A DNA stretch of 64,000 nt from an uncultured Spirochaetales bacterium (GCA_964494795.1 CAZBSV010000074.1:1053-65052), one strand, 5' to 3'. Positions 11,029 through 64,000 are shown, counted from the stretch's first letter. Numbers and translations: made by a program. The notes: generated by a model from the sequence alone, not told the origin.

Positions 11029-11283
11029 CGGCGCCGCCCTGAACCCACGCAGAATGAGCGATTAAACGTGCAAATGGGTGGGGTATTCCCCCTCCAATAC
11101 TACCTATCGGCCATCGAATGGTTGTCTTGAGGATCCGCGCGCGTGCTCCGACGCTGCGAAACCGGCCGTGCGCCGAGCGGATCGGGGCAAACGTGGATCG
11201 AGCCGTGCTGTAAAATGCCACCGCGAGCGCGACGCTGCGCGCTTCCCGCGAGTTTTCGCCCCGCCAGGCAGATTTTCCCGGCC

Positions 11284-14555: not shown

Positions 14556-17500
14556 TCAGGCATCGTCCCCATCCGGCACGACCACGCGCGGGGTCACGAA
14601 AACCAGCAACTCCTTGCGGCTCTCGCCGGTTTCGTCGCTTCGGAACAGTGCGCCGAGCAGCGGGATCTTGTGGAGATAGGGGACGCGCGATTGCCGCTCC
14701 GACTTGTCGATCACGTAGATTCCACCCAGGACGAGGGTTTGCCCGTCCTTGATGAGGGTCATCGTCTTGACCTGGTTCTTCGCGATGGCCGGCGAACCGG
14801 TCAGCGTGAAGACGCTGTCGTCGGGGGCGTTGCGCGTCACCGCGATCTTCATGATGATGCTCTTGTTCGCCGTGATGTGCGGTGTCACGTCGAGTTTCAG
14901 CACTGCGTCGACGAATTCGAGCTGTGCATCGCCGTTCTCGAACGTCTGGAACGGAATCGAGACGCCTTGCTCGATCGTCGCCTTGCTGTTGTCGAGCGTT
15001 ACGACTCGCGGACTCGAAATCACCTTGCCGTCGCCATTGACTTCCGCCGCCTGCAACTGCAGATCCACGTTGAATGTATCGTCGAGGATCCAGCCAGCGA
15101 GATTCAAGAATCCGTTCGGGTTCGCGGTGATCGGGTTGGCGATCAGGGCATCATTCCCCGCGGTGGGTGTGTAGAGCCAGTTGTCAGGCAACTTGTCCGG
15201 ATCTGCTCCCAGCGCCCACACGGTGCCGAATTCCCGAGAGAAATCGAGGCTTGCTTCCACGATCTTCGCCTCGATCATGACCTGCGGCGTTTGCGTATCG
15301 ATCGCCTTGATCAGCGCCGTTGCCTCAGCGATCACCGAAGGAATGTCCTTGATGATCAGCGTGCTGGTGCGCTCGTCCGTCGTGACGGTTCCGCGCTCCG
15401 GTGTCAGCAGTTGCTTGACCATGGCGGAAACCTGTTTCACGTCGGCAAAATTGACGGGCTGAAGCTTGACGATCAGGTCTTCGAGCCTTTCCTTCGAGCG
15501 GCGCTCCTGCAGGCGCATTTCCTCTTCCTGCTGGATTTCGACGCTCGGCGCGATCCGCAGAATGTTCCCGACGCGCATGAATCCGAGCCCCTTGGTGAGC
15601 AGGACGACATCGAGAGCCTGATCCCAGGGAACCTCGACCAGGCGTACCGTCACCTTGCCCTTCACGTCGTCGCCTGCGATCACGTTGAGTTCCGACACTT
15701 CAGCGATCAGACGCAAGACGTCCGCGATGTCCACGTCCTTGAAATCAAGTGAGATCCGTCGGCCGATGTATTGCTTTTCGGCCGACAAACCGCCCGGCGT
15801 CAACAAGTCGATCGCGGATTCGGGCTCGATCGAGGCGGGCATCGATTCCGAACTGGAATCGGAAGCCGGCTGCTGCGAAACATCGGAGTCAGCACTGTCC
15901 GGCGTCGAGGCAGGCACGCCCTCCAGCTGAGCCTGGGCGAGCATCGCCTGATCCTGGCTCATCGCAGGCGGCGCAACGGCCACCGCTCCGGTGCGTGGGA
16001 AATCAATCACCAGCAGTGAACCGCGGCGCGTAATCTCCGGTTGCAGATCCGCAGCGCGCTGCACGACCAACCGAACTTCGGGTTCTTCCATTTCGGGCTG
16101 ATCGAATGCGGTGACCAGCGAGATCGGACCACCGGGCTCAGGCGTAATGCGCACGGCGGCCTCAGGGTCCACCTTCGCTCCTCGGAGCGAGATGATCACC
16201 GTCTCGGACGTCGGCTCGAACACCGCGTAGTCGACCGGCGAGTCAGCCAAGACCACGATGCGATCTCGAGTGTCCTGATTGTCGAACTCGATCCCGTAGA
16301 TCGAAACGATCGCGCTGCCAGTCTCGGCGATAGCGGACTCGATTTGCTGCGTCTCCGGAGCCTCCATGGAATCGACAGGCGCGTCGATCGGATCCGCCCA
16401 GGCAGCTACTTCAGCCGGCGTCAAATCTGCTTCGACGACCGGTGTCACTGCAGCGACTTCGCCTGCCGCGATCTCGTCGGCCTCGGCACCCAGCTCATCG
16501 GGCGAGCTGCTCTGCGTCTCCGCATTGCCAATTTCTGCGATCTCGACGGGAGTTGCCATTGGAGCAGCCCCTCCCGTGGCTGCAACCAGAGCGGAGTCGA
16601 TCTCCGGCCCGCGGCCGAGGGCAATCACCAATCCAGCGGCGGTCGGCACGACCCTGCGACCATCGAAGGGCTGCGCGGTACTGCCGCCATCGACCACGAC
16701 GCGGATCTTGTCGACGTGTTCGCCCACGCGGACCCTCGACACCAGCTCCGAATCCAGTTCAATGGTCGAAAGATCCGCTGCATTCTCCAGTTCGAGAAGG
16801 TCTACCACCAGCCGCGACGGATCTTCGAGGGTGAAGGTCATCACGCTCGAGATCAATCCGTTCGCGCGAAGCTTCACGAGGACGCCCTCGCCGGCCTTCT
16901 CGACGTCCACGCCCGTGAAGCGGGTCGCGGGTGTCGGGTCTGCAGCCGCCTCCATCACATCTGCAGCCGCCTCCACCACATCTGCAGGCGCCTCCATCAC
17001 ATCTGCAGCCGCCTCCACCACGTCTGCAGGCGCCTCCATCACATCTGCAGGCGCCTCCGTCAAATCTGGGGACTGCTCAGCCGCGCTAGATGCCCAGGGA
17101 TCGAAGGCATCTGCCTGCGCGTGTTCCAGCGTCTCGGCACCCGAGTCGAGCGCCGCAGCGGCGAGATCGCCAGAAATTCGAATCTGCAATCCACCAGCAA
17201 CGAATTGCACCTCGTGCTCCGCGGGCGCGTCGAGGAAGACTTCTACGCGGGTCATTGCGTCGCTGGTTCCCGTCGAATAGGGCGCCACCAAGACCTTCGC
17301 GACGAGCCCGTCGCCTACGATCACGGGCTCGATCGCTCGATCGGCGCGCGCCGCCAGATCCACGATGATGCGATCCGGGTTCGGTTGCCCGAATGCCGTG
17401 AAGATCGGGTGATCCGGTCCGACCAGCGTAACGATGGTGTCACTTCCATCACGCTCGACCTGGATCTCCGAAATGTCCTGGTCCTGCGACGACTGAGCCG

Positions 17501-17603
17501 TCGTAGATCCGGTGCCAGCGCAGCCAACGGTTCCGCCGGCCAGCAAGGCCGCGAGCGCCGTCACCGCCGCAATGTGGAACCGACCGCTTCTAAATCCCAG
17601 CAT
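14556..17603 (-). CDS. pilQ: type IV pilus secretin PilQ with N-terminal AMIN-type domains
   Basis: The C-terminal secretin domain (...ATIEQGVSIPFQT...TLVLGGIY...RVPYLHKIPLLGALFR...ELLVFVTPRVV) is preceded by an STN/N0-like region and repeated AMIN-like modules. ATG 17603 with a GAGGGGGGG RBS inside the pilP end. Confidence 0.9.
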   Translation of the reverse strand: MLGFRSGRFHIAAVTALAALLAGGTVGCAGTGSTTAQSSQDQDISEIQVERDGSDTIVTLVGPDHPIFTAFGQPNPDRIIVDLAARADRAIEPVIVGDGLVAKVLVAPYSTGTSDAMTRVEVFLDAPAEHEVQFVAGGLQIRISGDLAAAALDSGAETLEHAQADAFDPWASSAAEQSPDLTEAPADVMEAPADVVEAAADVMEAPADVVEAAADVMEAAADPTPATRFTGVDVEKAGEGVLVKLRANGLISSVMTFTLEDPSRLVVDLLELENAADLSTIELDSELVSRVRVGEHVDKIRVVVDGGSTAQPFDGRRVVPTAAGLVIALGRGPEIDSALVAATGGAAPMATPVEIAEIGNAETQSSSPDELGAEADEIAAGEVAAVTPVVEADLTPAEVAAWADPIDAPVDSMEAPETQQIESAIAETGSAIVSIYGIEFDNQDTRDRIVVLADSPVDYAVFEPTSETVIISLRGAKVDPEAAVRITPEPGGPISLVTAFDQPEMEEPEVRLVVQRAADLQPEITRRGSLLVIDFPRTGAVAVAPPAMSQDQAMLAQAQLEGVPASTPDSADSDVSQQPASDSSSESMPASIEPESAIDLLTPGGLSAEKQYIGRRISLDFKDVDIADVLRLIAEVSELNVIAGDDVKGKVTVRLVEVPWDQALDVVLLTKGLGFMRVGNILRIAPSVEIQQEEEMRLQERRSKERLEDLIVKLQPVNFADVKQVSAMVKQLLTPERGTVTTDERTSTLIIKDIPSVIAEATALIKAIDTQTPQVMIEAKIVEASLDFSREFGTVWALGADPDKLPDNWLYTPTAGNDALIANPITANPNGFLNLAGWILDDTFNVDLQLQAAEVNGDGKVISSPRVVTLDNSKATIEQGVSIPFQTFENGDAQLEFVDAVLKLDVTPHITANKSIIMKIAVTRNAPDDSVFTLTGSPAIAKNQVKTMTLIKDGQTLVLGGIYVIDKSERQSRVPYLHKIPLLGALFRSDETGESRKELLVFVTPRVVVPDGDDA
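16939..17068 (-). repeat. 21-nt tandem repeat, about 6 copies, in-frame in pilQ (heptapeptide ADVxEAx)
   Basis: tctgcagccgcctccatcaca / tctgcagccgcctccaccaca / tctgcaggcgcctccatcaca ... encode APADVMEAPADVVEAAADVMEAPADVVEAAADVMEAAAD. Confidence 0.9.
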
Positions 17604-17608
17604 CGAAC

Positions 17609-18199
17609 TCACCCCCCCTCACTACGACGGATCCGCATTTCGATATCTTTTTTCGTCACGTTGCCCAGATAATCCACATAGGTCTCGTTGATGACGACCA
17701 AGTTGTCATCAATCGTTGTTACCATCCCTTCGTTCTTTCCGATTCGCGTGCCCTTCGCGACGATGTAACTATGACCAGCCGGGTCCTCTACCAACGCCCT
17801 CGCGGATCCCGTATTCCAGACCACCGCAACGATCGATAGTTGGCTGACGTCGAATTGCTCCAGCGGTCCGCCAGCCACTTCTTGGCTCGAGATTTCCTTC
17901 CTCTCCCACTCGAACGACCGGAACGGATCCCGCAGGCCCTCCTTGTCGTAGAGCATTCCGGGCCCGGTTCCGGCGAAGCTGCCATCGATCGCCGGTGCGA
18001 CGGGAACCGCGGCGACTTGACTCGGCTGCACGGCGGGCGCCGCCGCGGCTTCACCCTTCTTCGCCTTCCGCTCGGCTACGCGCGCGTTTAGCTTGGCGCG
18101 CTCCTGTTGAAACTCGGCCTGGGTCGGCTGGTTGGCCTCTTCTTTGCAACCGACCAGCGCCAACAATCCGATCGAGATCGCGATGGCTGCAATTTTCAC
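17609..18199 (-). CDS. pilP: type IV pilus assembly lipoprotein PilP
   Basis: GTG 18199 with GGAGGGG RBS. Lipobox LLALVGC. C-terminal PilP domain (LRDPF...LEQFDVSQLSIVAVVWNTGSARALVEDPAGHSYIVAKGTRIGKNEG). Confidence 0.75.
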   Translation of the reverse strand: MKIAAIAISIGLLALVGCKEEANQPTQAEFQQERAKLNARVAERKAKKGEAAAAPAVQPSQVAAVPVAPAIDGSFAGTGPGMLYDKEGLRDPFRSFEWERKEISSQEVAGGPLEQFDVSQLSIVAVVWNTGSARALVEDPAGHSYIVAKGTRIGKNEGMVTTIDDNLVVINETYVDYLGNVTKKDIEMRIRRSEGG

Positions 18200-35802: not shown

Positions 35803-37140
35803 CTAATCGGAGCGCGCGCGGCGCACGCGAAGCCGCAGCCCTTCGACCGCGGTGACCTCCACGGACTCGCCGCTCTCGATCTGCTGGTCGGCCTTGGCCG
35901 ACCAGTACTCGCCCCGAATGAAGACCTTGCCATCCGGGCACAGCGGCGTCCGCGCCTCGCCGATCAGGCCGAGCAGCTCGTCGACACCCGTCGTCTGCGC
36001 CCGAAAAACGCTTCGCGTCACGATCAGCACGATGGTCCCCGCACAGATCGCGAAGCCCGCCACCACGGGTACCAAGAACGTCCAGAATGGCAGCGTGAGA
36101 TCGCTCAGCTCCGGCATGTCGAATATCATCGAACCGCCAACGAGCATGCAGATGACTCCCAGCGTGAACAGCACGCCGAAGGACGTGACGAAAATCTCCA
36201 GCACGAGCAGGATCATCCCCACGAGCATCACCAGCAGGCCGATCCACGAGAACGGCAGGATCTGCAGTGCGAATCCGGCGACCACCAGGCAAAGCGCCCC
36301 GAGGATTCCCGGCACCAGCATCCCGGGCTGTTGAAACTCGATGTAGAGACCCAGCATTCCGGCCATCACGAGTAGCACCGCGATTTCCGGGCTGGCGAGG
36401 AAATTGAAGAATCTCGTCATCCCCGTCATCTCGATACTGCGAACATCCGCGGCTTCCGTTTCGAGGACGACCAGCGTCCCGTCGCCGATCTCGACCTCCA
36501 TTCCCTGGACTTGTTTGAGGAGATCCGCCCGATCCGAAGCCACCAGGTCGATCACTCCGAGTTTCAGCGCCTCGTCCTGGGCGATCGCTTCGGCCTCGCG
36601 CACCGCGCTGATCGCCCACTCGACGTTGCGTTTTCGCTCGGTGGCGATCGATTCCATGAACGCCATGGTCATCTTCTCGGCCTTCTCCATTCCCACGTCA
36701 CTGCGTTCGTCGTCCTCTTCGCGCTTCCCTCCGCCGCCCGATACGCTGATTGGAGACGCTGCGCCGATGCTGGTTCCGGGCGCCATCGCGGCGATGTGGC
36801 CCGCGAGCGTGATGAACGTCCCGGCAGAAGCCGCCCACGCGCCCCTCGGCGCGACGAACACGATGATCGGCACATTCGCGTTGAGCATCGCCTGGATGAT
36901 GTCCTTGGTCGACGCGAGCAGCCCGCCTGGCGTATCGAGTTCGATCAGGAGCGCTTCGGCACCGTCGGATTCACTCTGCCGAATCGCGTCCTGGATGTAG
37001 TCGGATGACGCCGGATTGATCGAGCCATTGATCGCAATCAAGTTGACGTGGCCCGCCGACGCGTTGCCCGCGAGCAGCGCGAGTGAACCCAGTGCAACGG
37101 CGAGAATGCGAATCGAGCGCGCCGACCCGAACGACATCAT
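35803..37140 (-). CDS. NfeD-family membrane-bound ClpP-class serine protease
   Basis: Signal peptide, ClpP-like domain (LIELDTPGGLL...AASAGTFITLAGHIAAMAPGTSIGAASP), 4-5 TM segments, C-terminal NfeD OB-fold (KVFIRGEYWSAKA). ATGA overlap with coaBC. Confidence 0.8.
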   Translation of the reverse strand: MMSFGSARSIRILAVALGSLALLAGNASAGHVNLIAINGSINPASSDYIQDAIRQSESDGAEALLIELDTPGGLLASTKDIIQAMLNANVPIIVFVAPRGAWAASAGTFITLAGHIAAMAPGTSIGAASPISVSGGGGKREEDDERSDVGMEKAEKMTMAFMESIATERKRNVEWAISAVREAEAIAQDEALKLGVIDLVASDRADLLKQVQGMEVEIGDGTLVVLETEAADVRSIEMTGMTRFFNFLASPEIAVLLVMAGMLGLYIEFQQPGMLVPGILGALCLVVAGFALQILPFSWIGLLVMLVGMILLVLEIFVTSFGVLFTLGVICMLVGGSMIFDMPELSDLTLPFWTFLVPVVAGFAICAGTIVLIVTRSVFRAQTTGVDELLGLIGEARTPLCPDGKVFIRGEYWSAKADQQIESGESVEVTAVEGLRLRVRRARSD

Positions 37141-38441
37141 TTGCTGCCTTTTCGCAACTTGACGATCCGGTCGAGCAGTTGCGCGGCGACCGCGCTCTTG
37201 GCAAGCGACGGCAGCTCTTCGATCTGCCCGTCCGGCCAGACGAAGACGGCCGCGTTGGAATCCGAATCGAAGACCGCCGCCTTTTCGCTGATGTCGTTCG
37301 CGACCAGAAGGTCGCAGCCCTTTCGCGCGAGCTTCCTGCTCGCGGCGGCGATCAGGTCGTGGCTCTCGGCCGCAAACCCGACCAGCGTGCGCTCGCCCTT
37401 GATCTCGCAGAGCTCTGCAAGGATGTCGGGATTGCGGACCAACTCGAGCGTCAGGCCCGCCGAATCCGCGAGGTCTTCTTTCTTGATCTTGCGTTCCGAG
37501 TATTGGGCGGGTCGAAAATCGGCCACGGCTGCGGCCATCACGGCGATGCTCGACGCCCCAAACTCCGATAGCACGGCATCGCGCATCTCACTCGCCGTCC
37601 GGACATCCAGCCGGCGCACACCCGCTGGCGTAGTCAGCGCAGTCGGTGCCGCGACGAGAACCACTTCGGCGCCGCGCCGCGCCGCCTCGGCGGCGACCGC
37701 AAATCCCATCTTGCCGGAAGATCGATTGCCCAGATAGCGCACCGCGTCGATCGGCTCGCGGGTCCCGCCTGCGCTGACCAGAATCCGCTCGCCTGCGAGA
37801 TCGCGGGTTCCGAGCAACAAGCTGGCTTCCGCGGCGATCGCCTCAGGCGGCGACATCCGGCCGGCGCCTTCCCAGCCGCACGCGAGTTCTCCGCTTTCCG
37901 GGCCAATCGAGCGGACTCCGCGCTCTCGCAGAACTTCCATGTTGGCACGCGTGGCCGGATGCTCCCACATGTTCACGTTCATCGCGGGTGCGACGAGAAT
38001 CGGCGCGCGCGTCGCGAGCAACACCGCCGACACCAGATCGTCGGCGAGCCCGCAGCGAAGCTTCGCGAGACTGTTGGCGGTGGCCGGCGCGAGGATTGCG
38101 AGTTCCGCCCAGTCCGCGAGCGAGATATGGTCGATCTCCCCTCCTTGGGAGGGGTCGAAGCGATCATTCTGGAAGGGGTCGAAGCGATCATTCTGGTAGG
38201 GGTCGAAGAGATCATTCTGGGAGGGGTCGAAGCGATCATTCTGGGAGGGGTCGAAGAGATCCTTGCGCACTGGGTAACCGGTCAGCGTCTGGACCACCAG
38301 CGGGGTGACGAACTGCTGGGCGTTTTCGGTCATCGCGCAGCGCACGCAAGCGCCAGCCCGACGCAGGATCCGGATCAACTCCGGAACCTTGTACGCCGCG
38401 ATACCGCCGCTGACCGCGACCAGGACACGCCGCTGTTCCAT
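37137..38441 (-). CDS. coaBC: bifunctional phosphopantothenoylcysteine decarboxylase / synthetase, carrying a tandem-repeat insertion
   Basis: VLVAVSGGIAAYK, APATANSLAKL, PAMNVNMW, ACGWEGAGRM, SAGGTREPID and GNRSSGKMG motifs. ATG 38441. Confidence 0.9.
   Translation of the reverse strand: MEQRRVLVAVSGGIAAYKVPELIRILRRAGACVRCAMTENAQQFVTPLVVQTLTGYPVRKDLFDPSQNDRFDPSQNDLFDPYQNDRFDPFQNDRFDPSQGGEIDHISLADWAELAILAPATANSLAKLRCGLADDLVSAVLLATRAPILVAPAMNVNMWEHPATRANMEVLRERGVRSIGPESGELACGWEGAGRMSPPEAIAAEASLLLGTRDLAGERILVSAGGTREPIDAVRYLGNRSSGKMGFAVAAEAARRGAEVVLVAAPTALTTPAGVRRLDVRTASEMRDAVLSEFGASSIAVMAAAVADFRPAQYSERKIKKEDLADSAGLTLELVRNPDILAELCEIKGERTLVGFAAESHDLIAAASRKLARKGCDLLVANDISEKAAVFDSDSNAAVFVWPDGQIEELPSLAKSAVAAQLLDRIVKLRKGSK
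38151..38264 (-). repeat. 24-nt tandem repeat, about 5 copies, in-frame in coaBC (octapeptide D[LR]FDPxQN)
   Basis: ggggtcgaagcgatcattctgg(a/t/g)a units at 38151, 38175, 38199, 38223 and 38247. They encode DLFDPSQN DRFDPSQN DLFDPYQN DRFDPFQN DRFDPSQG. Confidence 0.9.
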
Positions 38442-39987: not shown

Positions 39988-40140
39988 CAACCACGCACTT
40001 CATCGACCGCGGCCTGGTACGAGCAACGAGACACCAACGAAAGCACGGACACAAGCTGCGACACGATGTCGAGTGTCACGACTGCCGCCCGACCCAGGGT
40101 GGTCGCAGTCGCGACCGCACAAATCAGGAGAAACGAACAA

Positions 40141-40380
40141 ATGGCTACAGCTGCAGTTTCACGTCTCAAGCGGAAGCTTCCTGAGAGACTGGCCGCCGTC
40201 CGCGGAGATCGTTCTCAGCGACAGTTCGCGCGTGATCTCGGTGTTTTTCAGCAAAACGTCAACCGATACGAGAGCGGCACGACGCCGCACACGGATTTCC
40301 TGATCACGCTCGCGCTCAAGGAGAACATCTCGATCGACTGGCTGCTCCTGGGCAAGGGTAAGTTGCGAAAGGGCCGCTAG
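40141..40380 (+). CDS. small XRE/phage CI-repressor-type HTH protein
   Basis: 79 aa. AGGAGA RBS. SQRQFARDLGVFQQNVNRYESGTTPHTDFLITLALKENISIDWLLLGKG resembles the Phage_CI_repr HTH domain. Confidence 0.7.
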   Translation: MATAAVSRLKRKLPERLAAVRGDRSQRQFARDLGVFQQNVNRYESGTTPHTDFLITLALKENISIDWLLLGKGKLRKGR

Positions 40381-40405
40381 CCAGGCTTTGCCGTTCCAAC
40401 CATTC

Positions 40406-40441
40406 GAGGGCCCGGCCGCCAAACGCCGGGCCCTCGTTTCT
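40406..40441 (+). terminator. GC-rich stem-loop after the HTH gene (probable terminator)
   Basis: GAGGGCCCGGC-cgccaaac-GCCGGGCCCTC is a perfect 11-bp stem followed by GTTTCT. The T-tract is weak. Confidence 0.55.
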
Positions 40442-40516
40442 GGGACCGATCCCCTCGTTTCTGGGACCGATCCCGTCGTTTCTGGGACCGATCCCGTCGT
40501 TTCTGGGACCGATCCC
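40433..40516. repeat. 21-nt intergenic tandem repeat, 4 copies (tcgtttctgggaccgatccc+1)
   Basis: TTCTGGG recurs at 40438, 40459, 40480 and 40501 (exact 21-nt phase). The array starts inside the terminator tail and ends in the small palindrome CGATCCC-atctaatg-GGGATCG. Confidence 0.9.
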
Positions 40517-44780: not shown

Positions 44781-45866
44781 GTGAACCAGAATCGATCCAG
44801 ACAGCAGAGCGAGGCCCTCGTCGCAGAAGTCGTCCGCGCGCAGCTCGGGGCCGCGGTCAGCCGATTCAGCTGGTTGCGCGGCGCACTCGGCTTTCGAAGT
44901 TTCTCGAGGATCTGGCTCGAAGCATCTGAAACAACAAGACAATCTCTCCCTGAAACGCTGATCGCGCGGATCGAGGCCGCGGACGATCCGAGCCGCAGGC
45001 CCGCGGGCGTTCTCGCCGAGCCCGCCCTCGAGCCGATCCGCGCACTGCTCGAATCCGAGGGCCTTCCGGTGCCGCGGCGCTTCGGCGCGGATCCCGCGCG
45101 CGGCATCGAACTGCTCGAGGACCTAGGCGAGCGCTCGCTCGCGGATTTTGCGCGCAGCGCGGATGCGCGAGAACTCGACAGCCTCTACCGCGAAGCCTGC
45201 GAACTCCCGCCGCGGCTCCAGCGGATCGAAGCGCGCCCGGGCGTCGCAAACTTCGCGCGCCAGCTCGACGACGCCCACTTGCGCTACAAGGCCGAGCGCT
45301 TCGCGCGCTGGAGTCTCCACCGCGATCGCGCGGCGAGCCCCGAGGAGGCCACGGTCGTGCGCGAAGCTTTCGAGCGGATCGCGCGAGAGATCCGCAGCGC
45401 GCCGCGGCGGCTCGCGCATCGGGACCTGCAAAGCGCGAATCTCCAACTCGTCGAAACGCCTCGAGGTTCAGCTGCCAAGATGCCGTTTCGACTCGTGATG
45501 ATCGATCTCCAAGGTGCGTTCATGGCACCGCCCGAATACGATCTGGTCTGCCTGCTGCGGGATTCCTACGTCGAGCTCACTGAAGCCGCAGTGGCCGCGC
45601 ATCTCGCGCGCGTGCGATCCGCGCTGCCGGACTGCCCGGACGCGGAGATCTTTCAGCTGCGCTTCGACCTTCTCACCCTCAGCCGCAAGGCGAAGGACCA
45701 CGCGCTGTTTCGCGCGGTCGCGCGCGAGCGCGGGGACGAGCGCTATCTCCAGTACCTGCCAGCGACGCGCCGCTATCTCCAGACAGCGGCCGCGCGCGTT
45801 GCATCAAAATACCCAGAATACGCTGACTTGAATCATCTGATTCAAGCGATTCCGGAGCTTCCATGA
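44781..45866 (+). CDS. amgK: aminoglycoside-phosphotransferase-fold kinase, AmgK-like (anomeric MurNAc/GlcNAc kinase)
   Basis: GTG 44781 with AGGAAG RBS. APH catalytic region LAHRDLQSANL...MIDLQGAFMAPPEYDLVCLLRDSY. It is 4-nt-overlapped with a MurU-like gene. The symbol is tentative. Confidence 0.6.
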   Translation: MNQNRSRQQSEALVAEVVRAQLGAAVSRFSWLRGALGFRSFSRIWLEASETTRQSLPETLIARIEAADDPSRRPAGVLAEPALEPIRALLESEGLPVPRRFGADPARGIELLEDLGERSLADFARSADARELDSLYREACELPPRLQRIEARPGVANFARQLDDAHLRYKAERFARWSLHRDRAASPEEATVVREAFERIAREIRSAPRRLAHRDLQSANLQLVETPRGSAAKMPFRLVMIDLQGAFMAPPEYDLVCLLRDSYVELTEAAVAAHLARVRSALPDCPDAEIFQLRFDLLTLSRKAKDHALFRAVARERGDERYLQYLPATRRYLQTAAARVASKYPEYADLNHLIQAIPELP

Positions 45867-46783
45867 GAGCCATGATCGTCGCAGCCGGGCTCGGAACCCG
45901 ACTGCGGCCGCTCAGCGGGCTGCGGCCGAAGCCCGCGCTGCCGGTGCGCGGCATCCCGCTGATCGCCTACACGCTGGCACTGCTCGCCCGCCACGGCGTG
46001 ACGCAAGTCGTCGTCAACGCCCACCACCTGCCGGAGATCCTGATGGACGCGGCCCGGCGCCATTGCCCGGCCGGCATCGAGCTGCGCTTTTCGATTGAAA
46101 CCGAGCTGCTCGACACCGGAGGCGGCATCCGCCGCGTCGCGGATTTTCTGCGCGAGAGCGACCCGTGCCTGATCGTCGCGGGCGACATGCTCTTTGACGC
46201 GGACCTCTCGGCGCTGGTCGCCAAACAGCGCGAGCGCAGGGACGCGTGGACGCTCCTGCTGCGCGAGGGCGACCCGCGCGAGCCAAGATTCGGCAGCCTC
46301 GGCGTCGACGCGGAGGGCCGCCTGCGCCGCATCGGTCAGCGCTTCGACCTCGGCGGCGAGATGCGCGCGGGCATCTACAGCTGGGTGAACGTCGTGGCGG
46401 CGCGGGCCTTCGATTCGCTCCCCGCGCGCGAAATCTTCAGCCACCTCGACCATTGGATTGCGCCGCAGCTCGCGTCCGGCGCTGCGGACATCCGCGGCGA
46501 AATCCTCGCGGCAAAAGCGTTCTGCTGGGAACCCGTGGGTACGCCCGCCGAGTATCTCAAAGTCAATCTCGAGCCAACGCACCTTTCCTACCAGCAGGCG
46601 ATCGCTGGCGCGCAGCGCGCGGGCGCGCGGATCGTAGGAGACGTCGTGATCGGCGCGAATGCGACGCTCGGCTCCGGTGTGCGGCTGCAGCGCGCGGTCG
46701 TCTGGGACGGCGAGCGGGTTCCCGACGGGCTGGAAGCGAGCAACGGCGTCTTCGCCGGGGGAGTCTTTCACTCGGTCGATTGA
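45863..46783 (+). CDS. murU: sugar-1-phosphate nucleotidyltransferase, MurU-like
   Basis: MIVAAGLGTRLRPLSGLRPKPALPV, VVVNAHH, LDTGGGI, VAGDMLFD. The pairing with the AmgK-like kinase supports the call, but the symbol is tentative. Confidence 0.65.
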   Translation: MRAMIVAAGLGTRLRPLSGLRPKPALPVRGIPLIAYTLALLARHGVTQVVVNAHHLPEILMDAARRHCPAGIELRFSIETELLDTGGGIRRVADFLRESDPCLIVAGDMLFDADLSALVAKQRERRDAWTLLLREGDPREPRFGSLGVDAEGRLRRIGQRFDLGGEMRAGIYSWVNVVAARAFDSLPAREIFSHLDHWIAPQLASGAADIRGEILAAKAFCWEPVGTPAEYLKVNLEPTHLSYQQAIAGAQRAGARIVGDVVIGANATLGSGVRLQRAVVWDGERVPDGLEASNGVFAGGVFHSVD

Positions 46784-46796
46784 ACGCCTCTGCGAA

Positions 46797-46930
46797 GGTT
46801 GGTTGCACGGCTTCGCTGACGGAAGTTGGTTGAACGGGTTCGCTGACGGAAGTTGGTTGAACGGGTTCGCTGACGGAAGTTGGTTGAACGGGTTCGCTGA
46901 CGGAGGTTGGTTGCTTGGGTTCGCTGACGG
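46797..46930. repeat. 27-nt intergenic tandem repeat, 5 copies
   Basis: GCTGACGG recurs at 46815, 46842, 46869, 46896 and 46923. The unit is gttggttgaacgggttcgctgacggaa. It starts 14 nt after the murU-like stop. Confidence 0.9.
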
Positions 46931-46978
46931 GGGGCCATCGGGCTCAAACACCATGTCGCCCGATGGCCCCCCGTCAGC
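46923..46978. other. perfect 21-bp inverted repeat (hairpin) with 14-nt loop
   Basis: gctgacggggggccatcgggc - tcaaacaccatgtc - gcccgatggccccccgtcagc. The 5' arm begins with the last copy of the 27-nt repeat. Confidence 0.85.
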
Positions 46979-47207
46979 GCCCCGAGTGACGTTTTGAAGG
47001 ATCGAGCCGCCGATTGCAGGGGTTCTTTTTCACGCGCGGGCGGCAAATTTGCTTTGGGGTCGGGACGCGAGAGCTGGGAGCGACATGCGGTTGGAGCGAA
47101 TGCGCTTGCGCCCTGACCCCCAGAGCAGAGCCGATGTGCTGAATCCGCGTGCGGGGCAGCGAGCGGTTGCGCGCCGGTAGCTGGGGAAAGAGCTGGCGGT
47201 CCTAGCA

Positions 47208-54255: not shown

Positions 54256-54700
54256 CCTTTCCCGTGACGCCCATCAGCTGACGCAGGGTCGCCTTCAGCT
54301 TTGCGTCGTCCCAGGGTTTCGTGACGAGCGCGCGGATGCCGATCTCCGCGAGGCGCTCGGGCGGAATCTCCTGGGTCCAACCCGTGATCAGCATCCGAAT
54401 CGCATCGGGACTCGACTCCGCCGCTCGCTCGAGCAACTGGACACCGCTCATGCCGGGCATCTTGTGATCGGAGAGGATCGCGTCGACGCTGCGCTCGGCG
54501 AGAACCCGCAACGCAGCTGCCGCACTTTCGACAGCGACGATCTCGTAGCCCTCGCGGCGAAGTGACCGCTTCAGCGCGGAGAGGATCTGGGCTTCGTCGT
54601 CGACGAGCAGGAGTGTGGGCCGAGTCGATCCTGTTTTGACTTTCGATCCGGCCTTGCCCTTCAATCCGCGCCCCTTTCTCGGTCCGCACCCGGAAGCCAT
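54191..54700 (-). CDS. single-domain CheY-like response regulator
   Basis: LLLVDDE, ILSDHKMPGMSG, LITG, VTKPW. 65-nt convergent overlap with the preceding plus-strand gene. The start overlaps the kinase gene end. Confidence 0.8.
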   Translation of the reverse strand: MASGCGPRKGRGLKGKAGSKVKTGSTRPTLLLVDDEAQILSALKRSLRREGYEIVAVESAAAALRVLAERSVDAILSDHKMPGMSGVQLLERAAESSPDAIRMLITGWTQEIPPERLAEIGIRALVTKPWDDAKLKATLRQLMGVTGKASRREADSGTPDRSSDYSLRR

Positions 54701-56286
54701 ACCGTGAACCGGGTTCCCACACCGGGTTCGCTGTCGGCCACGAGACTGCCGCCGTGGCGTTCGACGATGTTGAAACTCGTCGACAACCCCAGGCCGGTAC
54801 CGACCCCGACTTTCTTCGTGGTGAAGAACGGATCGAAGATCCGGCCCATGTGTTCGGGAGCGATTCCCACCCCCGTATCCCTCACGATGATCGCGACGCC
54901 GCCCGCCCGGGGCTCCGTCTTCAGCCAGATCGTTCCCGTCTTTCCGCTGTCTCCAATCCGCTCTTCGACGGCCTGATAAGCGTTGACGAGCAGGTTCATG
55001 AACACCTGCTGCAGCTGCATCGGGTAACAGTAGACGGCGGGAAGGTTGCGATACTCCTTCTCGAGCTGCACCAGGTGTTTCATCATCGGCCAGACGATGC
55101 CCGCCGTCGAATCGAGGAACTGGTTGACGTCCGCCAATACGCGGTGCTCGCTGTCGCGGTGCGAGAAATCGCGCAGGTCGTGAACGATGTGGCGAATCCG
55201 CTCGGATCCCTCTTGCGACTCGCGAATTGCCTTGGCGAAATCGGAGAGCACGAACGCGACATCGAGTTCCTTGGCAGCCGCAGTCAGCGCACTCGAACTG
55301 CGTTGGATCTCGGCGAGATCCGCACCCGCCACGGCTGCCTGCAGCGCATCGACTTCGCGCCAGGCGCGCTGCAGGTCACCCAGGTACTCGGCCATCTGGA
55401 ACAGATTTGCGTGAATGAATCCCATCGGATTGTTGATCTCGTGGGCGACGCCGGCAGCGAGCTGCCCGATCGAGGCCATCTTCTCCGTCTGCAGGACTTT
55501 GCGCTGCAATAGCTTTATTTCGGTGAGATCCGAGAATACGGCGACGGCGCCGAGCTTGGCGCCCGCGCTATCGAAGACCGGCGCGCTGGAGATTCCGATC
55601 GGCACGCTCGTCCCGTCGGCTCGCGTGAGGGTCATCTCCATCCCCTTGAAGCGCTCCCCGGTTTCGAGCGTGCGCGCGACGTGATTCTGATCGCGCGGAA
55701 CCCCGCGGAAGCAGCTCTCGATCAGCTGCCCGCGCAATTGCTCCGCGTTCGCACCGAGGATCTCCTCGGCCGGAGGGTTCGAGAAGGCGATCCGGCCCTC
55801 GAGATCGACCACCAACAGCGCGCTATTCAAGTTTTGGATGATGTTCTGGTTGTAGCTCTCGAGGTCGCGGATCCGACGCTCCGCGACTCCCTGGTCGCGA
55901 GCCGCTCGCCAGCGCTGAATCTGCTCCAACGCAACCACGGGCAGCACGTCCGAAAATTCCTCGCCCGCAACCACGCAATCCGCCGCGCCTCGCCGGAAGG
56001 CTTCGAGCGCGGCTTCCTCACTCGGGCTGCAGTGGACCACGATCACCGGCGGGCCATCGACCTTGAATGCTTCGAGCAAATCCCAGCATTCGGAACCGAG
56101 CGCCGACTCCACGACGATCAGGTCGACCGGCGCATCCCGGCATCGGCCGCGGCAGGCAGCCGCATCGCGCACGGTCTCGATCGCTGCGCCCGGACCCAAC
56201 CGGCGCAGGGCCATGCCGGGGTCCGGCCCGGCGGACTGCGCGGAGCGCGCAACGATGATCCGAACTCCGGCGCGCGCTCGCTCCAC
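54661..56286 (-). CDS. histidine kinase with N-terminal pseudo-receiver, PAS, HisKA and HATPase_c domains
   Basis: The REC-like N-terminus has E at the acceptor position (DLIVVESAL). PAS-like region (LNSALLVVDLEGRIAFSN), H-box AAGVAHEINNPM, N/G boxes (LLVNAYQA; DTGVGI; GTGLGLS). Confidence 0.85.
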   Translation of the reverse strand: MERARAGVRIIVARSAQSAGPDPGMALRRLGPGAAIETVRDAAACRGRCRDAPVDLIVVESALGSECWDLLEAFKVDGPPVIVVHCSPSEEAALEAFRRGAADCVVAGEEFSDVLPVVALEQIQRWRAARDQGVAERRIRDLESYNQNIIQNLNSALLVVDLEGRIAFSNPPAEEILGANAEQLRGQLIESCFRGVPRDQNHVARTLETGERFKGMEMTLTRADGTSVPIGISSAPVFDSAGAKLGAVAVFSDLTEIKLLQRKVLQTEKMASIGQLAAGVAHEINNPMGFIHANLFQMAEYLGDLQRAWREVDALQAAVAGADLAEIQRSSSALTAAAKELDVAFVLSDFAKAIRESQEGSERIRHIVHDLRDFSHRDSEHRVLADVNQFLDSTAGIVWPMMKHLVQLEKEYRNLPAVYCYPMQLQQVFMNLLVNAYQAVEERIGDSGKTGTIWLKTEPRAGGVAIIVRDTGVGIAPEHMGRIFDPFFTTKKVGVGTGLGLSTSFNIVERHGGSLVADSEPGVGTRFTVWLPGADRERGAD

Positions 56287-56420: not shown

Positions 56421-56500
56421 TTGGCTGGACTCGGTTCACCCTGGTCAGCCTCGGATCGCCCTGGTCAGCCTCGGATCGCCCTGGTCAGCCTCGGATCACC
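56421..56500. repeat. 20-nt tandem repeat, 3 exact-phase copies plus 1 degenerate
   Basis: ctggtcagcctcggatcgcc at 56441, 56461 and 56481, preceded by a degenerate copy. It lies in the 209-nt spacer between the activator gene stop (which it overlaps) and the kinase gene start. Confidence 0.85.
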
Positions 56501-57920
56501 GTGGCTGGGTGCGAATCTTCGAGGCGATGTCGTGCTTGGCGAGTTTGCGGTAGAAGGTGCTGCGCCCAATTCCAAGCATATTCGCAGCCGCGCTGGCGTC
56601 CCCCGCGCATTCCGCCAGCGCGCGCTCGAGCGCGCATCTCTCGTAGGCGTCCAGGGAAATCGGTAGGCTCGTCGGAGCGAGCGCCGAAACGGCTCGCGTC
56701 GCGGGTCGATTGATCGCGAGATCCGAGACGCGCAGACGCGGCCCGCGCGCGAGCGCCATCGCCGACTCGATGATGTTCTCGAGCTCGCGAACGTTGCCCG
56801 GCCAATCGGATGCCATCAGAAGTTCGAGCGCTCTCTCTTCGATGCCCTCGACGCGCGAATTCTCATCTGCGTGCTTGCGGAGAAAATGCTGCACGAGCAG
56901 CGGAATGTCCTCGCGCCGCTCCCGAAGCGGAGGGATCACGATCCGAACCACGTTGAGTCGATAGAAGAGATCCGTTCGAAACCGACCTTCCTCCACCATC
57001 GTCGCCAGATCGCGATGGGTCGCCGAAATCACGCGAATGTCGACGGGGACCGCACTCGCCGCGCCCACGGGCCGAACCTCTTTCTGCTGCAGGGCTCGCA
57101 GCAACTTCGCCTGGACGGCGGGCGGGATCTCGCCGATCTCGTCGAGAAAAAGGGTCCCGCGGTTCGCGATCCGGAACAGGCCTGGCGCACCAACCGCACC
57201 GGTGAATGCACCCTTTTCATGCCCGAACAACTCGCTCTCGATGATGCTCTCCGGCAGCGCCCCGCAGTCGACGGGAACGAAGTCGCCTCCCGATCGCGGG
57301 CTCGCGGCGTGAATCCCGCAGGCCACCAACTCTTTGCCGGTTCCACTCTCCCCCTGCAGCAGAACATGACTCTCGTTGTGCCGGAGGCTGTGAATCTTGC
57401 TCGCAAGAGTACGCATCGCCGGCGAATTGCCGACGAGCGCCGGGATCGAGGCGCGCGCGCGCAGCTCCGTTTCGAGTTCCCGGTTGCGGCGGACCAACCT
57501 GCGCCGCTCGATCGCCTTGCGCACGGTCGTCTGGATCCGATGCACGTCATCGAACGGCTTTTCGAGATAGTCGAAGGCGCCTTTTCGGATGCAACCGACC
57601 GCGCTCTCGATACTGCCGTGACCGGTCATGACGATCACTTCGATTTCGGGGCGCGCGCTCTTGATCTGCTCGAGCAGTGCGAGCCCGCTGACCGGTCCGA
57701 GCAAAAGGTCCACCAGGGCGACGTCGAGGCGCGGATCGGAGAGATGCGGCGTCGCCTCGCTCACGGACTGCGCGAGCGCGGTTTCGTAGCCCGCGCGCTC
57801 GAGAACGCGCTTGAGCGACTGGAGCAACAGCGGCTCGTCGTCGACCAACAGAACGAAGCCCGAGGCTTCGGGCGCCGAGAAGCGGCGTGCGTCGGGCGAT
57901 TCCGCGCTCGCAGGTGTCAT
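56496..57920 (-). CDS. sigma-54-dependent NtrC-family response regulator
   Basis: REC (VALVDLLLG), [21 protein letters not shown], Fis HTH (AANMLGIGRSTFYRKL). ATG 57920 is preferred over TTG 58001. Confidence 0.85.
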   Translation of the reverse strand: MTPASAESPDARRFSAPEASGFVLLVDDEPLLLQSLKRVLERAGYETALAQSVSEATPHLSDPRLDVALVDLLLGPVSGLALLEQIKSARPEIEVIVMTGHGSIESAVGCIRKGAFDYLEKPFDDVHRIQTTVRKAIERRRLVRRNRELETELRARASIPALVGNSPAMRTLASKIHSLRHNESHVLLQGESGTGKELVACGIHAASPRSGGDFVPVDCGALPESIIESELFGHEKGAFTGAVGAPGLFRIANRGTLFLDEIGEIPPAVQAKLLRALQQKEVRPVGAASAVPVDIRVISATHRDLATMVEEGRFRTDLFYRLNVVRIVIPPLRERREDIPLLVQHFLRKHADENSRVEGIEERALELLMASDWPGNVRELENIIESAMALARGPRLRVSDLAINRPATRAVSALAPTSLPISLDAYERCALERALAECAGDASAAANMLGIGRSTFYRKLAKHDIASKIRTQPR

Positions 57921-57955
57921 GGAAGTCGTATCGGTCCCGAATTCGGGACGCTTGA

Positions 57956-59536
57956 ATGCCGAGGTCGGGGTCTCTAAGATACCCGGCGCCCCCTCCGCCA
58001 AGCGGAGTCAACCCACTGCGCAGCTCCAACATTCTCGTCGTCGATGACGAGGAACTCTATCGGCGAGCCCTCGAGCGCATTCTCGTCCGCGCCGGGCACC
58101 AGGTTGCCACCGCGCGAGACGCGATGGCGGCGCTCAGCCTCGTCTCGAGTCAGCCGACCGACCTCGTCCTGGCCGATATCCGGATGCCGGGCATCAACGG
58201 CCTCGAATTGGTGCGACAGATCCACGAGATTGCGCCGGATCTGCCCTGCATCGTCATCACCGGGCATGGCAGCCCCGAAAGCTCGGTGGAGGCGCTGAAG
58301 GCCGGAGCCTACTGGTACCTCGAAAAGCCCTTCGACCAGGGGCATCTCGATGTCGTTCGCAGGCTCGTCGAGCAGGCCATCGAGCACGGCCGACTCAAGT
58401 CTGAGAATCGAATGCTCCAGGGTCAGCTGCGTTCGCGGTATCGATTCGAGAACATCATCGGCACCAGCGCCGCGCTGCGCGGCGTGCTCGAAACCGTTTC
58501 GAAAGTGGCCGCTTCGGACAGCACCGTCCTCATCACGGGTGAGAGCGGAACCGGCAAGGAACTCGTCGCGCGCGCGATCCACTTCAACAACAAGCGGGCG
58601 GACAAGATGTTCGTAACCGTCAATTGCGGGGCGATCCCGGAAGAACTTCTCGAGTCCGAACTGTTCGGCCACGTTCGCGGCGCCTTCACGAACGCGGTCG
58701 CCAACCGCGAAGGCCGATTCTCCGTCGCCCACGAGGGAACGATCTTCCTCGACGAAATCGGCGACATGAGCCCCACCTTGCAGGTGAAGTTGTTGCGCGT
58801 ACTGCAGGATCGGACGTTCGAGCCCGTCGGTTCATCGAAGACCCAAAGCGTCGACGTGCGCGTGATCGCCGCCACCAACCAGAATCTCGACGAAGCGATC
58901 GCGCAGCGCCGCTTCCGCGAGGATCTCTACTATCGACTCAACGTGATTCCGATCGTGGTTCCTCCGCTGCGAGATCGCCGCGACGACATCCCGCTGCTCG
59001 CGCAGCACTTCTTGAACCTCGCCAACGAGGGCCGAGGCGAGCGGGCCGTGGAATTCTCCGACGAAGTCATCGCGCGATTGGCAGAATTCGACTGGCCCGG
59101 AAACGTGCGTGAACTCGAAAACCTCGTGGAGCGCATGGTCACGCTCTGCTCGGGCCGTGAAATCGTCGCGAGTGACCTTCCGAAGTCGCTGCAGAAGAGC
59201 GCTCCGCCGCGCCCGTCGGCGCCGCAGATCCCACCCCAAGGCTTGAGCTTTCGGGACGTCGTGGACCAGTTCGAATCGGACCTGATTCGCCAGGCACTCG
59301 AAATCACCCACGGCAACAAGAACCGCGCCGCGCAGCTGATCCAGATGAATCGCACCACGATGCTCGAGAAGATGAAGAAGAAAGGCGTCAAGTTCGATGC
59401 GGGGTCGAGCGATTCAACACGAGTGGACGGAACGCTTCGCGCCGAGGCTGCCGATCCGCGCGAAGTCGACGGGTTCGCAAACACGACCGCTGGCAGCGAA
59501 GCCGGCGACTCGCCAAACCCGCGGCGCACGCACTGA
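57956..59536 (+). CDS. sigma-54-dependent NtrC-family response regulator with variant GAFTNA loop
   Basis: REC (LVLADIRMPGING), [21 protein letters not shown], Fis HTH (GNKNRAAQLIQMNRTTMLEKMKK). Divergent from the previous activator with only a 35-nt spacer. Confidence 0.85.
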   Translation: MPRSGSLRYPAPPPPSGVNPLRSSNILVVDDEELYRRALERILVRAGHQVATARDAMAALSLVSSQPTDLVLADIRMPGINGLELVRQIHEIAPDLPCIVITGHGSPESSVEALKAGAYWYLEKPFDQGHLDVVRRLVEQAIEHGRLKSENRMLQGQLRSRYRFENIIGTSAALRGVLETVSKVAASDSTVLITGESGTGKELVARAIHFNNKRADKMFVTVNCGAIPEELLESELFGHVRGAFTNAVANREGRFSVAHEGTIFLDEIGDMSPTLQVKLLRVLQDRTFEPVGSSKTQSVDVRVIAATNQNLDEAIAQRRFREDLYYRLNVIPIVVPPLRDRRDDIPLLAQHFLNLANEGRGERAVEFSDEVIARLAEFDWPGNVRELENLVERMVTLCSGREIVASDLPKSLQKSAPPRPSAPQIPPQGLSFRDVVDQFESDLIRQALEITHGNKNRAAQLIQMNRTTMLEKMKKKGVKFDAGSSDSTRVDGTLRAEAADPREVDGFANTTAGSEAGDSPNPRRTH

Positions 59537-61698: not shown

Positions 61699-63210
61699 AT
61701 GCCGAAGACGATTTTATTGGCCGACGACAGCGTCACGATCCAGAAAGTCGTAGGCATAAGCTTTGCCAGCGAGGATGCGATCGTCGTGACCGTCGACAAC
61801 GGTGACGATGCGATCACCAAGACTCGCGAAATCCGTCCCGACATCGTCCTCGCAGACGTCGTGATGCCCGGCAAAAACGGCTACGAGGTCTGCCAAGCGA
61901 TCACAAACGACCCGGATCTCGCGCACATTCCGGTGCTGCTGTTGACCGGAACCTTCGAGGCCTTCGACGAAGCACGCGCGCGCGAGGTGGGTTCGGCGGG
62001 CCACATCGCAAAACCCTTCGAAGCGTCAGCCCTGGTCGCCGAGGTTCGGCGTTTGACGGACTCGGCGTCCGCCAAAGCGTCCGCCAAAGCGTCCGCCAAG
62101 GCGCCCGCCAAGGCGCCCGCTTCGCCGCAAACCGCGCCCACAAGGCCGGCCGCCCAGCAAGCTGTCGCGGTCGATGCATTCGACTTTTTCGACGACGAAA
62201 TCGGAGGGGCCGAGATTCCGCCCGCCGAACTCGCCGACGAAATGCTGGGCGACTTCAAATTCCAGGGCAGCGAGAGCGCAATCGCATTCGACGCTGACGT
62301 CCGCGGCGAATCTGCGGACTCGCGCGAGCGATTCGTGCCCATCACGCCCGATGTGGCCCGTGCGGTCGAGGCCGTCGAAGTCCGCCGCGTGTCCTCCTAT
62401 GCCGACGCCGCCGAGACCAGCGCTCCGTTCGCGACGTCGCGCGCAAGCGCGGCGGCGCCGGTATTCGACGACAGCCTCGACGATTCACTGTCTCCCGATG
62501 CGAGCCGCAGTGGCGATCGACCGTTCGACTTCGCACTCGCCGGCGAAATCGCGGATGCGACGGATCCGCTCGCCGAATTCGACCTGATGCCGCCCGTGGA
62601 CGCAGACGACCTCGCGCATGCCACAGTGATCGACCCACTCGGCGCTTCCGGCTACGACGTGTCGTCCTCGGACCTCGGACCGCCAATGCGCGACACCGCA
62701 CCGGATCTCGTGAGCGTCGCGCGCGCCCGCCAGCACGAGGCCGAGTTGACCGTGTTGGCAGCCGACGTCCCGCTCGAAGCGGAACCGATCTTCGACGACG
62801 ACTCATTCGGATTCGGGTCACCCGCGAACGACCTCACCCGCGTCGTGCGCGAAGATCCCGTGTACGCGAACTTTGCGACCCCGCGGCCGCCCGACGTCGC
62901 GGTCGAAGAGGACGAGCCCGAGAGCTGGCCTTCCCGGCGCCGCAGCGTGACCGCGCAAACTCCGCGCGCCGACCGCAAGGCAGACTCCGCGGCTGCGCTG
63001 ATCGCGAAGATCGGACCCGAATTGCGTCAGCAACTCCACGACACGCTCGAGAAGATCGCCTGGGAGTCGTTCGGCGACCTCACCGAAGCGATCGTCCGGC
63101 AGTCGGTGGAGCGCGTCGAATCGATCGCCTGGGAGGTCATCCCGCGGATGGCCGAAACCCTGATCGAGGAAGAAATCCGCAGAATGAAGAACGAGCCCGA
63201 AGACGCGTGA
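61699..63210 (+). CDS. response regulator with receiver domain, about 330 aa of acidic/Ala-Pro-rich linker and a conserved-looking C-terminal helical domain (RomR-like architecture)
   Basis: REC (ILLADDS, IVLADVVMPGKNG, LLTG, IAKPF). Low-complexity middle. C-terminus LHDTLEKIAWESFGDLTEAIVRQSVERVESIAWEVIPRMAETLIEEEIRRMK. ATG 61699 after a G-run RBS. Confidence 0.75.
   Translation: MPKTILLADDSVTIQKVVGISFASEDAIVVTVDNGDDAITKTREIRPDIVLADVVMPGKNGYEVCQAITNDPDLAHIPVLLLTGTFEAFDEARAREVGSAGHIAKPFEASALVAEVRRLTDSASAKASAKASAKAPAKAPASPQTAPTRPAAQQAVAVDAFDFFDDEIGGAEIPPAELADEMLGDFKFQGSESAIAFDADVRGESADSRERFVPITPDVARAVEAVEVRRVSSYADAAETSAPFATSRASAAAPVFDDSLDDSLSPDASRSGDRPFDFALAGEIADATDPLAEFDLMPPVDADDLAHATVIDPLGASGYDVSSSDLGPPMRDTAPDLVSVARARQHEAELTVLAADVPLEAEPIFDDDSFGFGSPANDLTRVVREDPVYANFATPRPPDVAVEEDEPESWPSRRRSVTAQTPRADRKADSAAALIAKIGPELRQQLHDTLEKIAWESFGDLTEAIVRQSVERVESIAWEVIPRMAETLIEEEIRRMKNEPEDA
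62065..62120 (+). repeat. 12-nt tandem repeat, about 4.5 copies, in-frame (SAKA/PAKA)
   Basis: gcgtccgccaaa x3 then gcgcccgccaag x1-2. They encode SAKASAKASAKAPAKAPA just after the receiver domain. Confidence 0.85.
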
Positions 63211-63382: not shown

Positions 63383-64000
63383 ATGGGTGGTCCGGCGGCC
63401 CTTCCTCCGCATTTCACGCCCCTACCTCCGCGGGTCACGCCGCTTCCTCCGCGGGTCACGCCGCTTCCTCCGGGCTGGACCTGGCTTCCGCTCGTCGAGT
63501 TAGCGCTCAGCGAAGACATCGGCGCTGGTGACGCGACGACACCGCTGATCGTCGAAGCCGGCCGCGAGGGCTCCGCGGTCATCGAGGCGCGCCAACCCCT
63601 CGTCGTCTGCGGTCTCGAAATCGCGTTTGAGGTGTTTCGCAAGCTCGATCCCGCGATCGAGCTCCGAGCCCGCTTCCGCGACGCAGAGCGGGCCGAATCC
63701 GGAGACATCCTCGCGACCGTCCAGGGCGACCTGCGCGGAATTCTCGCCGCCGAGCGAACCGCGCTGAATTTCCTGATGCGAATGTGCGGTGTCGCGACTT
63801 TTACGCGCCGCTTTGTCGACGCCGTTTCTGGAACAGGCGCGCGCATCGTCGACACCCGCAAGACCCTGCCGGGCTGGCGCAGCCTCGACAAATACGCGAC
63901 ACACATCGGCGGCGCGACGAATCACCGCGTAGGGCTCTACGACGGCATTCTGCTCAAAGACAATCACGTCGCGATCGCGGGCGGCGTCGGCCTCGCAGTC
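63383..64000 (+). CDS. nadC: nicotinate-nucleotide pyrophosphorylase (quinolinate phosphoribosyltransferase), 5' partial at window end
   Basis: This frame is not in the supplied ORF track and is open to position 64000. ATG 63383 with GAGGGAG RBS. ALSEDIGAGDATT, ERTALNFLMRMCGVAT, DTRKTLPGWR, GGATNHRVGLYDGILLKDNH. Confidence 0.8.
   Translation, partial: MGGPAALPPHFTPLPPRVTPLPPRVTPLPPGWTWLPLVELALSEDIGAGDATTPLIVEAGREGSAVIEARQPLVVCGLEIAFEVFRKLDPAIELRARFRDAERAESGDILATVQGDLRGILAAERTALNFLMRMCGVATFTRRFVDAVSGTGARIVDTRKTLPGWRSLDKYATHIGGATNHRVGLYDGILLKDNHVAIAGGVGLAV
63401..63490 (+). repeat. 21-nt tandem repeat, about 4 copies, in-frame at the nadC 5' end (heptapeptide LPPxxTx)
   Basis: cttcctccgcatttcacgccc / ctacctccgcgggtcacgccg / cttcctccgcgggtcacgccg / cttcctccgggctggacctgg. 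They encode LPPHFTP LPPRVTP LPPRVTP LPPGWTW. Confidence 0.85.

Follow-up and report, generated by a model that had tools for sequence, protein, structure and literature searches.

The coaBC gene of this uncultured Spirochaetales bacterium carries five head-to-tail, in-frame copies of a 24-nt unit in a loop beside the active site of its CoaC domain, at a site where its relatives have a single copy; the insertion and its uniqueness are direct observations. We read the array as a lineage-specific, in-frame coding minisatellite of the slippage type that is tolerated in a permissive CoaC loop, a classification made from sequence and from one assembly, and we put the probability of this reading at roughly 0.75. 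The array is one instance of a genome-wide repeat tendency and is not specific to CoaBC; comparable arrays occur elsewhere in the window (the whole stretch of DNA that was analysed, 64,000 nucleotides, with a G+C content of 63.5%). What sets it apart is its host site: the enzyme is essential, and the array lies right beside the catalytic histidine.

The 434-aa product scored 423.3 bits against TIGR00521 (cut-off 219.7, an equivalog-level match), and Flavoprotein and DFP domains were both present (Table 1), which bears out the identification as CoaBC made in a preliminary description of this DNA. The predicted start, MEQRRVLV, agrees with the N-termini of relatives; a longer, TTG-initiated reading frame extending to 38504 has no backing from homologs. 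The CoaC domain aligns to 6tgv, 1e20, 1qzu and 7cfu and the CoaB domain to 1u7u and 4qji, and the nearest solved relative by both sequence and fold is the Mycobacterium smegmatis CoaBC structure 6TGV (top Foldseek match, E = 3.5e-41). A review (PMC9604783) names as the catalytic residues of AtHAL3a His90, Cys175 and, within PXMNXXMW, Asn142 and Met145. Alignment to 1e20 showed the corresponding CoaC set to be complete, with His105, PAMNVNMW (residues 152-159) and Cys188 in ELACGWEG; the K-X-K-K motif of CoaB described in PMC7794376 is likewise present, as ERKIKKED (residues 316-323). The gene order rsmD-coaD-coaBC-nfeD (nfeD/band-7) is conserved, being the same as in a relative. Comparison with the ortholog of the syntenic relative L001 gave a dN/dS of 0.14 over 402 aligned codons, a value that mostly records the history before the insertion. 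No second coaBC was found in the 64-kb window, and the only other reading frames at the array site were spurious ones on the opposite strand, antisense to coaBC, coaD and rsmD. The protein thus has both domains and all the catalytic motifs of canonical CoaBC (M. smegmatis 6TGV, E. coli Dfp), and differs from it by 32 extra loop residues ahead of the catalytic histidine. To judge from the sequence, the enzyme most likely still works.

Table 1. Features of the coaBC locus and tandem arrays of the window (positions counted from the first letter of the window)
Feature	Position	Strand	Basis
coaBC coding sequence, 434 codons plus stop; ATG start at 38441, stop at 37137-37139	37137-38441	minus	ORF, homologs
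CoaC / HFCD flavoprotein domain, residues 5-205; houses the array	37827-38429	minus	Pfam PF02441, E = 5.5e-31
CoaB (DFP, phosphopantothenate-cysteine ligase) domain, residues 215-400	37242-37799	minus	Pfam PF04127, E = 7.6e-69
coaBC tandem array, 5.0 in-frame 24-nt copies	38145-38264	minus	TRF, codon-level reading, ortholog alignments, blastn break
Unit 1, AAG GAT CTC TTC GAC CCC TCC CAG = KDLFDPSQ, native-like; TDLFDPSQ in relatives	38241-38264	minus	sequence comparison
Unit 5, NDRFDPSQ; runs into native GGEIDH (EGEIDH in relatives)	38145-38168	minus	sequence comparison
7-bp inverted repeat CCCCTCC-ttg-GGAGGGG across the 3' edge of the coaBC array (coding sense)	38138-38154		folding analysis
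His105 codon, aligned with His90 of AtHAL3a; 5 residues past the last unit	38127-38129	minus	phmmer alignment to 1e20
Array, period 21, in TPR-repeat protein	7612-7709		TRF
Array, period 18, in TPR-repeat protein	8307-8374		TRF
Array, period 21, eight copies, PRA(A/T)G(S/P)(A/T), in TPR-repeat protein	9400-9567		TRF
Array, 21 nt x 6.2, heptapeptides APADVME / APADVVE / AAADVME, in PilQ gene (14556-17612)	16939-17068	minus	
Array, four copies of 21 nt, intergenic	40431-40516		blastn break vs L001
Array, 27 nt x 5, N-terminus of unannotated ORF (45845-47029)	46798-46930	minus	+108 nt = 4 x 27 vs L001
Array, period 20, intergenic, between histidine kinase gene (54661-56286, minus) and NtrC-type regulator gene (56496-58001, minus)	56430-56504		
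Array, period 12	62065-62120		TRF
Array, period 21	63399-63472		TRF

Tandem Repeats Finder (TRF) placed the coaBC array at 38146-38261 (period 24, 4.8 copies, 93% matches, no indels, score 204), and reading it in the coding frame on the minus strand gave exactly 5.0 copies over 120 nt. These encode (K/N)D(L/R)FDP(S/Y/F)Q as residues 60-99 of the protein, in the order KDLFDPSQ, NDRFDPSQ, NDLFDPYQ, NDRFDPFQ and NDRFDPSQ, followed by GGEIDHISLADWA. A five-copy array at 38151-38264, lying in the N-terminal CoaC domain between the TGYPVRKDLFD and IDHISLADWA segments, had been described beforehand; the copy number and placement were confirmed, and the coordinates were essentially right. The same description spoke of a 40-aa repeat insertion: the repeat region is indeed 40 aa long, but one unit is native, so that only 32 aa (96 nt) have been added. 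When the window was shuffled 30 times with dinucleotides preserved, no array reached a score of 80, and the top score of 69, set against 204 for the coaBC array, excludes chance as its source. Apart from the first codon (AAG or AAT), the units vary only at two second codon positions, one with T or G (L or R) and the other with C, A or T (S, Y or F). With a unit of 24 nt, a change in copy number keeps the reading frame; a phase-variable contingency locus was considered and rejected, because the unit lies inside the coding sequence and the frame is always kept.

Orthologs have one copy. All 119 next-best homologs among the matches listed have the single-copy stretch DLFDPSQEGEIDH at this site; they are 71-83% identical to the window protein where aligned, and about 402 aa long barring N-terminal extensions or truncation. 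The 434-aa window protein aligns to its relatives with a gap of 32 columns. The CoaBC genes of 80 species representatives likewise have one copy at this site. The nearest listed homolog is 83% identical, the closest named genomes with homologs are metagenome-assembled genomes of uncultured Myxococcota ("Deltaproteobacteria"; ≤68% identity), and the exact 434-aa protein occurs once in a collection of 5.8 billion proteins. At the DNA level, a blastn alignment of the syntenic relative to the window breaks at coaBC, where the window has 96 extra bases; the relative's DNA at the unit site reads GACCTCTTCGATGCCTCCCAGGAGGGAGAGATCGACCAC. A search of 1.84 billion representative proteins, made with residues 40-125 as query and with no word index, returned no CoaBC-like match running through the repeat; CoaBC-like matches came as two separate flank stretches, or as one stretch in the case of two long-loop homologs described below (P0172 and P0195). 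JGI metagenome contigs gave no match to either of two patterns, one for an internal unit junction and one for the junction between the last unit and its flank; the species is apparently without representation in that collection.

The loop that houses the array is variable in length across bacteria. Counted from the G of GxPV (GYPV) to the catalytic histidine in the CoaBC genes of 80 species, it spans 17-30 residues, with 19 in the lineage of the window, compared with 51 in the window itself. In Acidobacteriota it is mostly 24-26 residues and up to 30, with 5-11 extra residues rich in G, S, A, E and D at the same spot. Two metagenomic, short CoaC-like homologs go further, P0172 with a loop of 43 and P0195 with one of 46; these loops are non-repetitive and sit in the same place, and their extra residues, some 24-27 in number, are rich in Pro, Gly and Ser. 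This variation across phyla (17-30, rarely 43-46) argues that the site is permissive, and the CoaC loop is a natural hotspot for indels. Among the loops compared, that of the window is the longest and the only one made of tandem repeats.

Several expectations of the preliminary description bear on these comparisons. It held that the array's flanking segments are joined in known homologs by a short loop; this is true of the close orthologs, which have the single-copy stretch, and of the solved structures, but across phyla the loop varies as given above. The alignments fixed the insertion point where it had been proposed and turned up no homolog loop of similar length and sequence. Its suggestion that the array grew out of the gene's own sequence gains support from the first unit, which is the native KDLFDPSQ, (K/T)DLFDPSQ in relatives.

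Once the four extra units are taken out, the CoaC domain can be aligned with 6tgv, 7cfu, human 1qzu and Arabidopsis 1e20 across the loop without a break, with indels of at most 2 residues. The AlphaFold2 model of the protein, built from 81 sequences, was confident nearly everywhere (mean pLDDT 86.6, pTM 0.83), except that residues 67-102 had pLDDT values below 50 and no secondary structure, and the alignment depth over the insert was nil. A helix comprising residues 104-111 is predicted to begin right after the insertion, with His105 at its start. The low pLDDT over the insert, which stems in part from this lack of depth, denotes an absence of predicted structure and is not proof of disorder; on this model, the 32 added residues most likely leave the fold as an unstructured segment. 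A relationship between the repeat peptide and a known family was also considered and rejected: its top matches in the representative library were unrelated low-complexity proteins with a period of 8.

It is conceivable, if unlikely, that the insertion is functional, its acidic, aromatic 8-residue repeats acting as a lid or gate of CoaC, as a tuner of dodecamer assembly, or as a docking or regulatory segment, and being kept by selection. Proximity to the catalytic histidine (5 residues) hints at such a role, the array is the only one of the ten in the window to lie inside a compact catalytic domain, and the differences between its units (L/R, S/Y/F) are all non-synonymous second-position changes with no synonymous one among them. 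Four non-synonymous changes out of four are nevertheless not unusual; an estimated 70-75% or so of random codon changes are non-synonymous. No other CoaBC among the proteins searched carries the repeat, and the repeat peptide has no AlphaFold-predicted structure and no match in Pfam even at E = 10. Similar arrays moreover lie in intergenic DNA of the same genome, so that a selective explanation for the array is not required. The 32 extra residues are probably without a function of their own.

These other arrays make the coaBC insertion part of a wider pattern. With arrays defined by a period of at least 9, at least 3 copies and a score of at least 80, the 64-kb window has 10, compared with 8 in 543 kb from 81 loci of other genomes, where they are concentrated in three loci; the density in the window is thus about tenfold higher. 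The 21 kb of the syntenic relative have none. All ten window arrays are 168 nt long or shorter, and the nine outside coaBC have 3.3-8 copies, with a 21-nt period predominating. The syntenic relative is collinear with the window over 27090-48703 with three breaks only, and each break is an array: that in coaBC, the four-copy intergenic array and the 27-nt array of the unannotated ORF. No array is present at the intergenic site of the relative, whose hairpin has a plain T-run. The PilQ array lies in the linker ahead of the second AMIN domain; at that point the ten PilQ homologs closest to it each show a DVVEVAAEP-like sequence once. All four arrays that were tested (these three and that of PilQ) are therefore single-copy in relatives. 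Further hosts include a response-regulator linker and a site upstream of, or within, the N-terminus of nadC. A large TPR-repeat protein (7390-11061, minus strand) bears three separate arrays. The periods of arrays within genes are all divisible by three, and the sole exception to divisibility, the period-20 array, is intergenic, as would fit selection purging frame-breaking arrays from coding DNA.

Taken with the unit sequences, this pattern suggests how the array may have arisen. The native 24-nt segment of coaBC, encoding KDLFDPSQ in the loop ahead of the catalytic histidine, would have been duplicated first, and replication slippage or unequal exchange would then have amplified it to five head-to-tail copies. 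Every internal unit junction has AAT in place of the native codon AAG, from which we infer that an already mutated copy was amplified; the copy that spread would already have had AAT for AAG (N for K) and CGC for CTC (R for L), and the point changes that give S, Y or F would have gathered afterwards. A single process would have been at work across the genome, in coding and non-coding DNA alike, and a coding array would survive only if its period is divisible by three and its site in the protein tolerates added length. In CoaBC that site would be the single CoaC loop that is already variable in length across bacteria, and the location of the array in the family's one length-variable loop fits slippage combined with selection for tolerant sites. 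Since extra length in this loop occurs naturally and arrays are tenfold denser in the window, the insertion is less surprising than it might otherwise seem. Most likely the array is a by-product, tolerated by the enzyme, of a genome prone to repeats.

A bolder reading is that this lineage has an unusually active process, perhaps rooted in defective or peculiar replication or repair, by which single-copy segments of 18-27 nt become arrays of some 4-8 copies all over the genome, with a favoured unit of 21 nt, and which has here reached the catalytic core of an essential enzyme; in its strongest version the repeat also alters the gating or assembly of the CoaC dodecamer. We consider this improbable. 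Were the strongest version true, the array would be a natural case of slippage giving an essential enzyme a new loop function.

That the array is an artefact of assembly or sequencing, the true genome having one copy or at any rate fewer than five, seems very unlikely. Only one metagenome-derived contig does supply the sequence, the exact protein is known from a single member, neither junction pattern was matched in the JGI metagenome contigs, and the arrays are all in the size range (≤168 nt) where short-read assembly decides the outcome. Against this, the units are non-identical, and their order L-S, R-S, L-Y, R-F, R-S defines a unique path instead of a collapsible loop. At 120 nt the array would fit within a typical read, and the reading frame is preserved. 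Assemblers usually collapse tandem repeats sooner than expand them, and errors of assembly would hardly be expected to yield ten independent arrays, nine of them with a period that is a multiple of three.

The CoaC active site is formed at the interface of three protomers within a dodecamer (PMC7794376), and twelve 32-residue loops per dodecamer, each 5 residues from a catalytic histidine, might be harmful. The remaining and least probable alternative, that the CoaC half is disabled in a decaying or CoaB-only gene and decarboxylation falls to another HFCD enzyme encoded elsewhere, draws on the fact that 32 residues have been inserted beside the active site in so tightly packed a dodecamer and on the view of only 64 kb of the genome, but it conflicts with the intact 434-codon frame, the retention of the catalytic residues of both halves, the conserved operon context, the lack of a second coaBC in the window, and the homologs with loops of 24-30 and 43-46 residues at the same site.

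The array can be set beside three kinds of known insertion. Bacteria have in-frame coding minisatellites, or VNTRs, such as the octapeptide repeats of Neisseria PilQ. Like these, the coaBC array is head-to-tail, with a unit length divisible by three, copies that are highly identical at the DNA level, a single or variable copy number in relatives and a presumed origin by slippage, and the PilQ gene of the same window also has such an array. Unlike these, whose usual hosts are surface proteins, linkers and disordered tails, it lies in the catalytic domain of an essential cytoplasmic enzyme; and whereas copy-number polymorphism is the defining property of a VNTR, the coaBC array is known from one assembly. 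The CoaC loops of other bacteria share its insertion point, between (L/F)(F/W)D and x-I-(D/E)-H, but their extra residues are non-repetitive or of low complexity, whereas those of the window form a clear, young tandem repeat at the DNA level. In Plasmodium falciparum, housekeeping enzymes throughout the genome carry slippage-derived, compositionally biased segments in surface loops, which extrude from the fold. As in coaBC, the hosts there are conserved, essential enzymes, the segments originate by slippage and they are tolerated; the P. falciparum insertions, however, are eukaryotic, AT-rich and homopolymer-like (Asn/Lys), in contrast to the well-defined 18-27-nt units of this G+C-rich bacterial DNA.

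If real, the coaBC array, a young insertion of known origin in a loop that has grown longer several times in evolution, is a clean natural experiment on the tolerance of an essential, tightly packed oligomeric enzyme to insertion, and it bears on how loop insertions arise. It leaves knowledge of CoA biosynthesis unchanged. CoaBC is a drug target in mycobacteria. Marking a permissive insertion site in the enzyme has modest value for protein engineering. The wider excess of arrays is probably the more useful lead, and it makes this lineage a candidate for studying tandem duplication in bacteria.

A search for local triggers of the duplication yielded none that withstood controls. No microhomology explaining the first 24-nt duplication was found at the coaBC site. 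A CAAGGA direct repeat that flanks the native unit was rejected, since its copies are 22 nt apart, not 24, and so cannot explain the duplication. The tetranucleotide GATC was rejected as a trigger as well: five of the ten arrays contain it, which is not significant given that 23-27% of random windows of 21-24 nt do too. GATC is frequent in the window as a whole (786 occurrences, or 12.3 per kb; the ratio of observed to expected from mononucleotide composition is about 3.7) and CTAG is scarce (26 occurrences); the excess of the one and the scarcity of the other are probably effects of codon and dinucleotide usage.

Hairpins adjoin three of the arrays: the 7-bp stem at the 3' edge of the coaBC array, a terminator around 40405-40435, and a stem of 15 bp at 46929-46972. 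The coaBC array itself folds no better than its shuffles (z = +0.78). Hairpin stalling was tried as a general explanation and rejected, as raw folding energies at array edges looked stronger than background but z-scores against shuffles were not significant (p = 0.12 and 0.31). A weaker form of the coaBC inverted repeat is present in a relative; the repeat could pause replication, which we offer only as a lead. The terminator-like hairpin, GAGGGCCCGGCC...GCCGGGCCCTC-GTTTCT, sits downstream of an HTH gene (40066-40380), and the four-copy intergenic array starts within its 3' arm and T-tract. The ATG of the unannotated ORF lies inside the hairpin at 46929-46972, which is very stable (-35.9 kcal/mol when RNA parameters are used); because a similar hairpin is present in the syntenic relative, it may be a regulator of translation.
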